The translations under genes and the position numbers were made by a program. The notes below the pieces were generated by a model, which was not told where the DNA came from, made no database searches, and saw only the letters and a program-made list of their open reading frames with translations. Below are positions 854-5,223 of a stretch of 5,474 nucleotides of DNA, piece after piece; position 1 is the stretch's first letter; each line of letters starts with the position of its first letter. The stretch is taken from IMG/VR virus record IMGVR_UViG_2698536677_000017. One strand, 5' to 3'. This stretch comes from a virus (taxonomy: Duplodnaviria; Heunggongvirae; Uroviricota; Caudoviricetes).

Positions 854-1569
854 TTACTTCACAACCCTCATATTGCTGACATTTGGACGCCAGCTATCCC
901 AGTTAAACGTCACCCATCGACCACCGTTCATGGTCATGCGGTCCATAATCCTCTCACCAAGAAGCGTACTCATTGCGGCATGATTCAGGTTTGTTAACAT
1001 CCCGACACTGCACAGTGATGCTGTCCGGCGATCAATTATCTGGTGCAATACCACCTGCTCGTTTTTCGTCTCCCGCTGAACGCCTATTTCATCCAGGACC
1101 AGCAAATCAACCCCGCAAAGCTCCTGTAAAAATTTTTCCCCGGATTTGCCGTTGTCGTAGCTGTCATGCAACACGCTCATGACGTCAGACACGGTGACGA
1201 TAATCACGCTGCGCCCCTTCACCATCAGCCGGTTGCCCATCGCCGCTGCAAGGTGATTTTTCCCGGTGCCACGGTCATCAGTTCGTCAGCTATGGATTTG
1301 GCCTGGCTCAGCGCGTATTTTTGCCCGTCGTTCTGCACCTGATAATTTGCAAACGAGCATTTGCTGTGCAGAGGCTGGATGCCCGAACGATTCAGGATTT
1401 TTTCCACCCGCAACTGGCGATTCTGGCGGTTAATCTCCTCGCTGCGTTTTCGTCCTTCAGCAAGTTGCCATTCCCGCCACTCCTCCACCGTCCGGTACGG
1501 TGGAACCGACCCCTGTGGTGCAAGTCTGCGAATACGTTCAAGAACCCCAACTGCCGCAATGTTTTTCAT
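854..1569 (-). pseudogene. DnaC-like helicase loader (phage replication protein, YdaV-like), disrupted by a frameshift in the Walker-A region
   Basis: Two overlapping minus-strand ORFs, 1225-1569 (N-terminal, ...NRSGIQPLHSKCSFANYQ...) and 854-1240 (C-terminal, ...VDLLVLDEIGVQ...MLTN...WVTFNWDS...), together cover a DnaC-like protein. The Walker-A core GTGKNHLAAA is encoded around 1238-1270 in the frame of the C-terminal ORF, but the N-terminal ORF reads through it out of frame (MTVAPGKITLQRRWATG then stop). The in-frame text just upstream (RTDDR) does not resemble the expected P-loop lead-in, suggesting an indel. Confidence 0.75.
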
Positions 1570-1575
1570 GACACG

Positions 1576-2538
1576 TCACCCCCTGAATCCCGGCGGTATT
1601 TCAGTGTCCGGTTCAGAAATGTGATTCACGCAACGCTGCGCAGGCGAACGCCCCAGGCGGATAACCAGTTCATCCCATTTTTCCCGGAGTTTTGCCGGAC
1701 TCATGATGTTTTTTACCCAGAACGAATCCCGCTGGAGACGCCCAAACATTTCACAAATTTGTCTGTGAGTTCTGCCATCCAGCATCCGCATTGTGCGAAC
1801 GTCATTGGCCCATGCTGTCCAGTTGGGTTCTTTCGGTCTAGTGATCTCGCCATCATAGCTGGCCGCCTGCTCGTAAAGACTCACGATTCGTCCCCAGATC
1901 CACTGTGCGCACACCAAATCTTCCTGACTTCCCCACTGGCGTTTTTTCGCACTGAACACAACCGCGTCAGGGTGTCGGGTTAAAAAATCCTGTTCAGCCG
2001 TCTGCGGGTCCGGTTGCGAAGCGTCCGGACAAGAAGATCTTTTATCTGACGGATCAGGTTTTAATACTGACGGATCGGGGTCAATCATCGCCCCCCTAAT
2101 CGGCAGTTTTTTATCAACAGTTGATCCATCAAAATTTGACGGGTCAACCGTTGAGGGGTCAATATTTGACGGGTCAACTGTTAACGGGTCATTTTTTGCC
2201 GGGCTAATTTTTCTTTTCGGTTTATATGACTCACGCGCCGCCGCCGCAGCTGCTTCGAGTTTTTCCACATTAAGCCGATAGATATTGCTTACATTACGCC
2301 CACCGACCTTACGCTCTTCCTTCGTCAGCCAGCCCTCTTTCGCCAGTTCTGCAATAGCCGATTTCACTGTGGATTCACTTCTTGCACCGATCTGACGCCG
2401 GATAGTTTCAATGGCAGGCCATGACACGCCCTCGTCATTGCTGTAGTCTGCAAGACGGGCCATAACCGCCACCCTGGATAAGATCATGCCGGTGAAGGCG
2501 CACCCTTCCCAGACAAGACCATGAAGCTTGCTGCTCAT
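1576..2538 (-). CDS. Replication initiator, lambda O-like / YdaU-like (N-terminal HTH DNA-binding domain, origin iterons inside the gene)
   Basis: Long minus-strand ORF. Start chosen as ATG (complement of 2536-2538) with a GGGGG SD-like run 4 nt upstream; an alternative GTG start lies at 2553. The N-terminus (MARLADYSNDEGVSWPAIETIRRQIGARSESTVKSAIAELAKEGWL) is HTH-like; the middle encodes DP(S/L)xxDPSTVD repeats matching the DNA iterons. Its stop is 6 nt before the DnaC-like start. Confidence 0.8.
   Translation of the reverse strand: MSSKLHGLVWEGCAFTGMILSRVAVMARLADYSNDEGVSWPAIETIRRQIGARSESTVKSAIAELAKEGWLTKEERKVGGRNVSNIYRLNVEKLEAAAAAARESYKPKRKISPAKNDPLTVDPSNIDPSTVDPSNFDGSTVDKKLPIRGAMIDPDPSVLKPDPSDKRSSCPDASQPDPQTAEQDFLTRHPDAVVFSAKKRQWGSQEDLVCAQWIWGRIVSLYEQAASYDGEITRPKEPNWTAWANDVRTMRMLDGRTHRQICEMFGRLQRDSFWVKNIMSPAKLREKWDELVIRLGRSPAQRCVNHISEPDTEIPPGFRG
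2047..2195. repeat. Iteron array (putative replication origin) inside the O-like gene, followed by an AT-rich tract to about 2230
   Basis: Seen in sequence: near-palindromic core TGACGG(A/G)TC(A) at 2047, 2068, 2137 and 2167, with variants TGAGGGGTC at 2152, TAACGGGTC at 2182 and TTGATCCATC near 2121. The last four copies sit at a regular 15-bp spacing. Immediately downstream is ATTTTTTGCCGGGCTAATTTTTCTTTTCGGTTTATATGA (about 2191-2230). Confidence 0.55.
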
Positions 2539-2560
2539 AAAACCCCCGAACACCGTGCTT

Positions 2561-2986
2561 TTAGTGCATCACCACAGCATTCCCTGCCGGGCCGCCGCGA
2601 TTCATCTGGTCATACAAAACAACCGCTGACGCAACAAAATCATCGACATCCTTCACCAGCCGATCCCTCCGTTCGACGATCTCACGGTAATATTCAGAAC
2701 TGTGGCTGCGCATACGGGCCACCAGCAAAGGCGGCATCGCCTTTTCGATCGCCGGTAACAGAGCCTGCATTTTTTTAACAGCATCAGGGGTGTCTTTCTC
2801 TACCCAGCGGAAAATTTTCTGGGTATTACGGGCCAGGGCTTCCGGATGGCTGTCGTCATACAGTTCCGGGAACGTCATTCCCAGCTCGAAATACGCTTTG
2901 GTAATTTTCGCAGCCGGTACTTTTTCGCCGTCCGGATGCGCCCAGACATTCATCGCCATGCGGATGTGTTCATGCTTGATTTTCAT
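2561..2986 (-). CDS. YdaT-like protein (Rac-type early gene; described either as a CII-like regulator or as a putative toxin)
   Basis: 141-aa ORF beginning MKIKHEHI..., ATG start with GGAG 7 nt upstream. Its start overlaps the stop of the upstream Cro-like gene by 4 bp (ATGA). Position (cro-like, then this gene, then O-like, then DnaC-like) matches the Rac ydaS-ydaT-ydaU-ydaV order. Family call is from memory. Confidence 0.65.
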   Translation of the reverse strand: MKIKHEHIRMAMNVWAHPDGEKVPAAKITKAYFELGMTFPELYDDSHPEALARNTQKIFRWVEKDTPDAVKKMQALLPAIEKAMPPLLVARMRSHSSEYYREIVERRDRLVKDVDDFVASAVVLYDQMNRGGPAGNAVVMH

Positions 2987-3285
2987 GAATCAACTCCATC
3001 AGATAAGCATGTACTACAATCACCTTCAGCATGAACTACATGTGTTTGCCCCAAACGAATGCCGCTCGCATACTCAGGCCAAATAAGCTCCCAATCATGG
3101 GGTCGTAGCTCCGCCCTACTTACTTGGCCTTCCGTCGCAGATTCGATCATAAGGGCGCGGGTTGGAGATATAGCTGTTCGTCCAGACGCCATTTGCGATA
3201 AGTAAGATGGCGATACACCAAGTCTGGCCGCGAATTTCTTAGCATCACCAACCCTTAATGATTTAATAAACTCTTTTAATGTCAT
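2983..3285 (-). CDS. Cro-like HTH regulator, YdaS family
   Basis: 100-aa ORF, ATG (complement of 3283-3285) with GAGGAAGG SD just upstream. The motif LGVSPSYLSQMASGRTAISPTRALMIESATEGQVSRAELRPHDW is typical of the YdaS/Cro-like HTH family. First gene transcribed leftward from the divergent operator region. Confidence 0.8.
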   Translation of the reverse strand: MTLKEFIKSLRVGDAKKFAARLGVSPSYLSQMASGRTAISPTRALMIESATEGQVSRAELRPHDWELIWPEYASGIRLGQTHVVHAEGDCSTCLSDGVDS

Positions 3286-3382
3286 ACCTTCCTCGGTTTA
3301 GTGTTTTTTTGCGAGTTTAGTGTTTAATAAACCATTAAGTCAAGTATTTGCTTGTTTAGTGATTACTAAAGATAATTACCAC
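3286..3382. promoter_or_regulatory. Divergent operator/promoter region (OR-like) between the Cro-like gene and the repressor gene
   Basis: Seen in sequence: three copies of the half-site GTTTAGT at 3296, 3315 and 3354. Two sit in palindromic contexts: AGTTTAGT-gttt-AATAAACC (3314-3333) and TTTAGT-gatt-ACTAAA (3355-3370). Candidate rightward promoter: -35 TTGCTT (3348-3353), 17-bp spacer, -10 GATAAT (3371-3376), placing the transcription start at or next to the repressor ATG (3383). Candidate leftward promoter: -35 TTGACT (complement of 3338-3343), -10 TAAACT (complement of 3314-3319), 18-bp spacer. Confidence 0.6.
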
Positions 3383-3754
3383 ATGCAAAAAAAAGAAATT
3401 CGCCGTTTACGTCTCAAGGAGTGGTTTAAAGATAAAACTCTGCCACCCAAAGAGAAGAGCTACCTATCTCAACTAATGAGTGGGAGAGCCTCGTTTGGAG
3501 AAAAGGCTGCCAGAAGAATAGAGCAAACATACGGGATGCCGGAAGGGTATCTGGATGCGGAATACGCAGAACAACCGGGGGTTTCTCCACCACATGCAGG
3601 GTTAACGTCTAATCAACTGGAATTATTGCAGATTTTTTCAGCCTTCCCTGAGGATGAGCAACGCCAGATAATCAGCGAGTTAAAGCAGAAAAAAGAATCA
3701 ATGGAAGATCTCATAGCGAGATGGATTGCGGCGCAAAAATGCCGCCGCGCCTGA
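3383..3754 (+). CDS. Prophage repressor, short HTH protein, DicA/RacR-like (no S24 peptidase domain)
   Basis: ATG at 3383 chosen over the GTG at 3320 given in the ORF track, because the upstream extension would cover the operator/promoter sequences. The N-terminal segment EKSYLSQLMSGRASFGEKAARRIEQTYGMPEGYLD is HTH-like; the C-terminal segment LTSNQLELLQIFSAFPEDEQRQI resembles the DicA C-terminal region as I recall it. No SD precedes the start and the -10 lies 7 nt upstream, so the mRNA is probably leaderless. Confidence 0.75.
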   Translation: MQKKEIRRLRLKEWFKDKTLPPKEKSYLSQLMSGRASFGEKAARRIEQTYGMPEGYLDAEYAEQPGVSPPHAGLTSNQLELLQIFSAFPEDEQRQIISELKQKKESMEDLIARWIAAQKCRRA

Positions 3755-3774: not shown

Positions 3775-3966
3775 ATGAATAGAGCCCTTTCACCAATGGT
3801 TTCTGAATTTGAAACCATTGAACAAGAAAACAGTTACAACGAATGGCTGCGTGCGAAAGTAGCAACGAGCCTTGCAGATCCGCGCCCAGCAATTCCCCAT
3901 GACGAAGTTGAGCGCAGAATGGCAGAACGCTTTGCTAAGATGCGTAAGGAACGGAGCAAGCAGTAA
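3775..3966 (+). CDS. Type II antitoxin, ParD/RelB-like ('stability determinant' type), partner of the downstream ParE-like toxin
   Basis: 63-aa ORF (MNRALSPMVSEFETIEQENSYNEWLRAKVATSLADPRPAIPHDEVERRMAERFAKMRKERSKQ). ATG at 3775 with GGAGG (3766-3770) 4 nt upstream; the upstream ATG at 3721 overlaps the repressor and has no SD. The stop TAA (3964-3966) is 1 nt before the toxin ATG. Small, acidic-to-basic profile and position upstream of the toxin are typical of antitoxins. Confidence 0.7.
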   Translation: MNRALSPMVSEFETIEQENSYNEWLRAKVATSLADPRPAIPHDEVERRMAERFAKMRKERSKQ

Positions 3967-3967
3967 A

Positions 3968-4246
3968 ATGTTACCCGTGTTATGGCTTGAAAGCGCAGAT
4001 ACCGACCTAGATGATATAACTAGTTATATTGCTCGTTTCGACATAGATGCGGCTGAACGCTTATGGCAGCGATTAAGGGGTTGTGTGCTGCCGTTATCCG
4101 AACATCCGTATTTATACCCACCAAGCGACAGAGTACCTGGCTTGCGTGAGATTGTAGCCCACCCTAACTATATAATTCTATACCGCGTAACAACATCAAG
4201 CGTTGAAGTAGTAAACGTGATCCACGCAAGACGCCAGTTTCCCTAA
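3968..4246 (+). CDS. Type II toxin, ParE/RelE superfamily
   Basis: 92-aa ORF (MLPVLWLESADTDLDDITSYIARFDIDAAERLWQRLRGCVLPLSEHPYLYPPSDRVPGLREIVAHPNYIILYRVTTSSVEVVNVIHARRQFP). The pattern W..A..DL..I..YI...D...A, then PG.RE......YII.YRV, then V.VV.V.H.RR at the C-terminus is characteristic of ParE/RelE toxins. ATG at 3968, 1 nt after the antitoxin stop. The ORF-track start at 3872 would overlap the antitoxin and is rejected. Confidence 0.8.
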   Translation: MLPVLWLESADTDLDDITSYIARFDIDAAERLWQRLRGCVLPLSEHPYLYPPSDRVPGLREIVAHPNYIILYRVTTSSVEVVNVIHARRQFP

Positions 4247-4701: not shown

Positions 4702-5040
4702 ATGGAATTTAAAGATTTACCTCCTTCAATCCAGGAGATTGCAGCACACACACTTCGTCATCGTCTGAACGAACTTGAATTGGAATCGGTAACAAAAAAA
4801 GACACTGATAATATGGCTCGCAATGTGCGCGATGCGTTTACTGGGCTGTTTTCAGATACAGCTTTAAATATCCATGGCACAGAGGATACAGCAAAACAAT
4901 TTGCAGAAAAAGAAGTGGAAGATCCCAGTTCAAAGAGCCAGAAACAGCCAAACAACCATGAAATTAACGAACTGCTTCTGGCAACAGGCTTCATAAATAT
5001 TAACGAATATGAACGCCGTAAAAAAATGTTATCTGATTAA
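4702..5040 (+). CDS. Hypothetical acidic protein, 112 aa, no recognisable family
   Basis: ORF with ATG at 4702 preceded by GAGG (4692-4695) at a 6-nt spacing. An alternative start is the ATG at 4690, which overlaps the stop of the upstream gene as TGATG. No hydrophobic segment and no motif I recognise. Confidence 0.6.
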   Translation: MEFKDLPPSIQEIAAHTLRHRLNELELESVTKKDTDNMARNVRDAFTGLFSDTALNIHGTEDTAKQFAEKEVEDPSSKSQKQPNNHEINELLLATGFININEYERRKKMLSD

Positions 5041-5223
5041 TCCATCAAGATATCTTTTTAGCATCAGCGTTTCTACGTTATTAAAACCATCAGATTTTAA
5101 CATAGCTTCGATTCGCTGATTTAAATTGCCAACTAACTGTTGATACTGAGTAGATGGAAGCATGTGTACCAGCTCCTTGAGAACACAATAACATGCACCA
5201 AGTTTTAACTCCTGCTCTGACAT
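5029..5223 (-). CDS. Hypothetical small protein, 64 aa, convergent to the previous gene
   Basis: Minus-strand ORF (MSEQELKLGACYCVLKELVHMLPSTQYQQLVGNLNQRIEAMLKSDGFNNVETLMLKRYLDGLIR). ATG (complement of 5221-5223) with a strong GGAGGA SD 4 nt upstream. Its 3' end overlaps the 3' end of the plus-strand gene by 12 bp. The upstream in-frame ATG at 5235 in the ORF track lacks an SD. Confidence 0.6.
   Translation of the reverse strand: MSEQELKLGACYCVLKELVHMLPSTQYQQLVGNLNQRIEAMLKSDGFNNVETLMLKRYLDGLIR

Follow-up and report, generated by a model that had tools for sequence, protein, structure and literature searches.

A DnaC-like helicase-loader gene lying in a stretch of 5,474 nucleotides (the whole of which is called the window here) has lost 31 bp at its Walker A motif and is left as two fragments in different reading frames, and we consider it rather probable that this is a real, apparently private deletion that inactivates the gene. 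The elements on which this reading is built are the following:

1569..1225, minus strand: N-terminal fragment of the DnaC-like gene, 114 aa (open reading frame list, translation and alignments)
1240..854, minus strand: C-terminal fragment of the DnaC-like gene, 128 aa (open reading frame list, Pfam, identity to the intact gene)
1271..1272, minus strand: deletion junction, 31 bp missing (pairwise alignment with L001:5001-5747)
1270..1253, minus strand: remnant Walker A core, GGC ACC GGG AAA AAT CAC, encoding GTGKNH (sequence and frame analysis)

The original prediction, made from the letters of the window, was that the halves of a DnaC-like protein lie in different frames and overlap at 1225-1240, and the open reading frame listing confirms this arrangement on the minus strand, with an overlap of 16 nt. 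The N-terminal fragment consists of 99 native residues, which comprise the helicase-binding domain and the linker (equivalent to E. coli DnaC ~1-97 in the alignment to 6QEL), after which 15 residues are read out of frame (VAPGKITLQRRWATG) up to a TGA stop at 1227..1225. The C-terminal fragment comprises the AAA+ domain from just past Walker A to the native stop, including Walker B (LLVLDE) and the downstream motifs, with no P-loop; it is 100% identical to the corresponding part of the intact gene and matches Pfam IstB_IS21 with 36 bits against a cut-off of 24.1 (profile positions 116-208). The GTGKNH codons had been placed in the frame of the C-terminal fragment and described as read out of frame by the upstream one, and frame analysis agrees on both points, the N-terminal fragment translating them as VAPGKITL. 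They are, however, located 5' of the first start codon of the C-terminal fragment (the ATG at 1240, ten codons past the Walker A lysine) and, since that frame is open from 1285 only and contains no ATG, GTG or TTG before 1240, the GTGKNH core is present in neither of the two predicted products.

On the gene strand, the missing 31 bp read AGTGCACGAATTTTGTGTTCAGCGGTAAAAC in the pairwise alignment with the intact gene, and the sequence across the junction is GATGACCG immediately followed by TGGCACCGGG. All 716 retained bases are identical to the intact 747-bp gene, the 31-bp gap being the sole difference between them. The deletion takes the last two bases of codon E100, codons 101-109 and codon T110, with the loss of the peptide ECTNFVFSGKT (E100-T110) and a shift of the frame by one base. 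In the alignment with DnaC the lost residues correspond to N98-P108, that is, to the hydrophobic FIFSG strand that runs into the P-loop and to G106-P108 of the loop itself; from general knowledge of the AAA+ fold, we take the FIFSG-type stretch to be strand beta-1. The first half of Walker A (GKTGTGKN) disappears with it, and nowhere in the window copy does a GxxGxGK[N/T/S] motif follow beta-1 in one frame with the AAA+ domain. The proposal that the lead-in to the P-loop is missing is thereby borne out and can be expressed as a 31-bp deletion defined against an otherwise identical gene, whose exact position, between 1272 and 1271, was located by the alignment to intact phage DnaC-like homologues that had been suggested for that end. 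Of the “small indel” postulated at Walker A, the indel stands and the adjective does not, given that ten whole codons and one base are gone, and not one or two slipped bases.

As to the way in which such a deletion may have originated, a base-by-base comparison with the closest allele revealed 0 bp of microhomology at the junction, with no ambiguity in its placement, and slippage between direct repeats was rejected on that basis. The copies of ACCGG that stand 33 bp apart in the common allele do not provide a way out, as slippage between them would yield ACCGGCACC and the sequence observed is ACCGTGGCACC. A hairpin-mediated deletion is not supported either, since the deleted region folds no better than shuffled sequence (z 0.64).

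The intact allele came from a megablast search in which the 716-bp region was compared with 5,426 complete E. coli genomes, 1,412 of them giving a match; the best matches cover the whole query in two pieces that span 747 bp. In E. coli FDAARGOS_536 (locus L001) the gene is an uninterrupted reading frame of 747 bp and 248 aa (“ATP-binding protein”, WP_032202795.1), and the same intact allele occurs in other ST131-type E. coli genomes. Its product aligns to E. coli DnaC (PDB 6QEL) over residues 2-242 with an E-value of 2.8e-74, and the 56-aa N-terminal peptide of DnaC in PDB 6KZA is matched by its residues 2-57, a helicase-binding region that in the window falls wholly inside the native part of the N-terminal fragment (1569..1273). 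Walker A (GKTGTGKN) is found at residues 108-115 and Walker B (LLVLDE) at 166-171; in the window, Walker B and the C-terminal AAA+ motifs are kept in the C-terminal fragment, apart from any P-loop. The intact protein matches Pfam IstB_IS21 at 70 bits and NCBIfam NF009043 at 502.5 bits (cut-off 389) over model positions 1-248 of 248, and reaches 299.1 bits with the chromosomal DnaC equivalog NF005931, under the 357-bit cut-off of that model. Judged by these profiles, the gene is a phage paralogue of DnaC and not the host dnaC. Nor is the resemblance to DnaC a product of chance, to judge from the strength of the DnaC match and from the C-terminal fragment scoring above the Pfam cut-off by itself. 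Taken together, the alignment, the Pfam and NCBIfam profiles and the DnaC matches uphold the initial identification of a DnaC-like helicase-loader gene disrupted by an indel at Walker A. The binding and loading of DnaB and the ATPase activity would be ascribed to the phage protein by homology to E. coli DnaC only. The window copy, in turn, can be assigned to NF009043 by descent, but is a pseudogene, since it lacks an intact in-frame Walker A. The possibility of a family that naturally does without the lead-in to the P-loop was also considered, and it was rejected: the 11 intact homologues (the reference plus ten loci reached via the neighbouring DUF1627 protein) are all 248 aa long and all carry ...CTNFVFSGKTGT[G/R]KNH; at the equivalent place E. 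coli DnaC reads ...IASFIFSGKPGTGKNH.

The comparison with known systems delimits what the locus is. With the intact allele WP_032202795.1 (NF009043, PRK12377) it shares identity at 716 nt, the same neighbours and the same type of prophage, but it is devoid of 31 bp (codons 100-110) and encodes two fragments instead of one protein of 248 aa. The intact homologue, for its part, resembles E. coli DnaC (6QEL/6QEM; NF005931) in its full-length alignment, its N-terminal helicase-binding domain, a Walker A ending in GKN, Walker B and the C-terminal AAA+ elements, whereas it differs from it in that the phage gene adjoins a phage initiator and not dnaT, belongs to a paralogous subfamily and is disrupted in the window. 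The IS21 IstB helper ATPases (PF01695; PDB 5BQ5, 8Q3W) are members of the same AAA+ clade, as reflected in the Pfam match, but they resemble the phage protein weakly and in the AAA+ domain alone (E ~1e-7), no IstA transposase is encoded next to the gene, and the N-terminal domain is DnaC-like and not IstB-like. No close relative of the gene was found in the phage collection, where the best matches reach 79-85% identity and cover less than half of the gene.

Over 100% of its length the window finds counterparts in ST131-type E. coli chromosomes, with matches that span 5,505 bp (5,474 + 31), and according to these matches it comes from a lambdoid (Rac/ST131-type) E. coli prophage. Following the gene strand from right to left, the genes encode a RelE/ParE toxin, a RelB/PaaA2 antitoxin, a DicA/RacR-like repressor, a YdaS-like cro (divergent from the repressor), YdaT, an O-like HTH_36 initiator, the DnaC-like protein, a DUF1627 protein and the start of a DUF977 protein. 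The initiator occupies the position immediately upstream of the disrupted gene:

1576..2553, minus strand: replication-initiator (O-like) gene with an HTH_36 domain, whose homologue in RefSeq has 320 aa

Its stop codon is separated from the ATG of the dnaC-like gene by 6 nt. In FDAARGOS_536 the prophage adjoins potC and contains, in this order, integrase, excisionase, exonuclease, dicB, the replication module, RusA, an antiterminator, lysis genes, terminase, portal, capsid and tail genes. This reference prophage thus looks complete from the integrase to the tail genes, which means that the loader gene sits where it matters.

Some other elements of the window deserve a brief description. The initiator gene contains five iteron-like repeats with an exact spacing of 15 bp at 2114-2203 (unit ~TCAACnGTTGAnGGG), which are intact in the window, encode a repetitive DPSNIDPSTVDPSNFDGSTVD stretch in the initiator protein and are overlapped by a 33-nt near-palindrome at 2116-2182; iterons and near-palindrome probably constitute the replication origin of the prophage, which would lie within the O-like gene, as is the case in lambda. 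In the intergenic region 3286-3382, between the ydaS-like cro (3285..2983) and the repressor gene (3383-3754), GTTTAGTGTTT is present three times and an imperfect 24-nt repeat is found at 3308-3331 and 3347-3370, and these repeats look like putative operator sites of the divergent immunity region. Directly downstream of the repressor gene, the RelB/PaaA2-type antitoxin (3775-3966, plus strand) and the RelE/ParE-type toxin (3968-4246, plus strand) are encoded. Other variants of the prophage (L003 and L004) have a LexA-like S24 repressor and a P22 Cro in this region instead, a difference in gene content that marks the immunity region as mosaic. At the gathering thresholds of Rfam, no RNA family was detected in the window.

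Is the deletion present anywhere else? No copy of a 36-nt sequence spanning the junction turned up in 185,579 species-representative genomes, the JGI metagenome contigs or IMG/VR, and the 114-aa product was absent from a gene index of 153 billion positions. Neither search of the collection of 5,426 complete E. coli genomes gave a one-piece match among the matches listed, and the top ones listed consist of two pieces each, with a span 31 bp longer than the query. A recurrent or lineage-marking allele was rejected in view of the fact that neither the junction nor the 114-aa product was found in any collection searched. The 128-aa C-terminal product, by contrast with the 114-aa one, is indexed in 73 collection blocks, and the same allele was ruled out as its source in all of the ten loci inspected from these blocks. 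In L013 and L014 it derives from A5->A4 homopolymer errors, in fragment-rich assemblies with many broken neighbouring genes; in L017-L020 and L022, from contigs starting inside the gene; and in L015, L016 and L021, from other lesions. Therefore, these disrupted alleles of the same prophage gene have in common with the window that the same 128-aa product is called, but none of those examined carries the 31-bp deletion. A separate observation concerns GGCACCAGG in the same gene, which results in GT-R-KNH, where arginine takes the place of the conserved glycine that immediately precedes the lysine of Walker A. This lesion is found in four independent assemblies (L005:5233-5979, from CP056800.1, together with L015, L016 and L021), in the first of them within an otherwise full-length 248-aa open reading frame, and it hints that the ATPase function of the loader may be under relaxed constraint in some prophage copies.

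An allele seen only once raises the question of whether it exists at all outside the assembly. The strain might carry the intact 747-bp gene and the deletion might be an artefact of assembly, consensus or finishing, possibly because contigs were joined or a gap was closed at a repeat boundary, or because of a drop-out in a long-read consensus; we regard this as a possible but unlikely explanation. The allele being a singleton in every collection searched is in line with it, although a private mutation would fit equally, and a junction with neither microhomology nor a hairpin is less typical of a spontaneous deletion by replication slippage. In addition, 31 is a very common k-mer length of assemblers, which speaks for an artefact as an argument from coincidence only. 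In L017, L018 and L022 the contig starts within the deleted segment, 5-6 nt in from its right end, at (T)AAAACCGGCACCGGG, which corresponds to window ~1271-1277. Such breaks indicate that, among paralogous prophage dnaC-like genes, the conserved P-loop-coding block marks a repeat or mosaic boundary; since draft contigs of multi-prophage genomes break there, a wrong join would be likeliest at this point. Nonetheless, the 5,443 bases aligned to the closest genome outside the deletion contain 4 substitutions and not one indel, which sets the window apart from the error-prone L013 and L014, and three of these substitutions also occur in other assemblies. This points to a clean consensus and a natural variant, and makes a real private mutation more likely than an error of assembly or consensus. 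Furthermore, the same gene continues perfectly on both sides of the junction and no chimera with a paralogue is visible. The lack of junction microhomology also makes every junction-spanning k-mer novel, and de Bruijn graph assemblers would not be expected to place such k-mers inside a contig without reads supporting them. The fourth substitution (A at window 5284, T in four fetched loci) was seen in no fetched locus and is non-coding, upstream of a small gene at 5223..5029.

If the deletion is accepted as real, a different kind of alternative has to be weighed, namely that the split gene is still functional. One way to achieve this would be a -1 frameshift that fuses the two fragments, for which a candidate site exists:

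1264..1258, minus strand: G GGA AAA heptamer, in phase with the frame of the N-terminal fragment; a -1 slip enters the frame of the C-terminal fragment

This heptamer, which resembles the slip site GGGAAAG of lambda G/GT, has the phase required for a -1 slip, from which a 238-aa fusion ending at the native stop would result. The other way would be that the 114-aa fragment, which retains the residues equivalent to DnaC 1-97, serves by itself as a minimal ATP-independent DnaB loader at the prophage origin. The helicase-binding domain (HBD) of E. coli DnaC comprises residues 1-75, and the isolated HBD loads DnaB on ssDNA in vitro with about half of the wild-type efficiency and stimulates unwinding (PMC8213410), which lends some support to that idea. 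Even so, a functional split gene appears most improbable in either form. The fusion (...ELMTVAPGKNHLAAA...) would be devoid of beta-1 and of the GKTGT half of Walker A, so the ATP site of the AAA+ domain is not restored, and there is no stimulatory structure downstream of the heptamer (z 0.78), on both of which grounds a rescue by programmed frameshifting was rejected. The phase of the heptamer is peculiar to the deletion allele, the intact homologues reading the same bases in frame as GGG AAA AAT, and the heptamer seems incidental, an accident of reading these codons one base out of frame and hence a by-product of the frameshift itself; a conserved, in-phase X XXY YYZ site accompanied by a stimulator, as would characterize a programmed -1 frameshift, was not found. 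The ATPase activity of DnaC requires the Walker A lysine K112 and other AAA+ motifs, and the AAA+ motifs are described as crucial to its function in vivo (PMC8213410). Moreover, the allele is conserved in no other genome, and there is thus no sign of selection for it. It is likewise very unlikely that the 114-aa HBD fragment, expressed on induction, acts on the host DnaB, be it as a minimal ATP-independent loader or as a harmful, deregulated ring-opener. If it did, an ATP-independent loader would keep the prophage replication-competent, and the freed HBD fragment would be nature's equivalent to the engineered HBD of DnaC that has been examined in vitro.

Under the preferred reading, that of a real and private inactivating deletion, the consequences for the loader and for the prophage can be proposed with different degrees of confidence. 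The replication module consists of the ydaS-like cro, ydaT, the O-like initiator with its internal iterons and the DnaC-like helicase loader, and the deletion of 31 bp would deprive the latter of strand beta-1 and of the first half of Walker A, besides shifting its frame. What could still be made is the 114-aa protein, with an intact helicase-binding domain and 15 junk residues, and possibly also the P-loop-less AAA+ remnant of 128 aa, though it has no obvious ribosome-binding site. The loss of beta-1 and Walker A, together with the frameshift, implies that no product of the locus can hold an ATP-binding site, and the reading frames show in this way that the predicted AAA+ ATPase loader function of the phage protein is lost. 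After induction, the loading of the helicase at the phage origin would be impaired unless the helicase-binding fragment or the host DnaC compensates for it, and a replication-defective prophage is plausible. Several points call for caution about this defect: the window spans no more than 5.5 kb, the host DnaC is alignable over the full length of the phage protein, the N-terminal fragment keeps the whole helicase-binding domain, the isolated DnaC HBD is able to load DnaB in vitro, and the initiator and the iterons are intact.

With regard to annotation, the locus should be described as one pseudogene (a frameshifted DnaC-like loader) and not as two hypothetical proteins, and the deletion calls for a caveat in that description. 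Its relevance is limited to work on the inducibility of the prophage in the source strain. Prophage replication genes are routinely inactivated in individual strains, and nothing in this locus departs from known biology, the deletion being an ordinary first step of prophage decay by pseudogenisation. If it is real, the copy of this widespread ST131-type lambdoid prophage that the strain carries would probably be impaired in self-replication.
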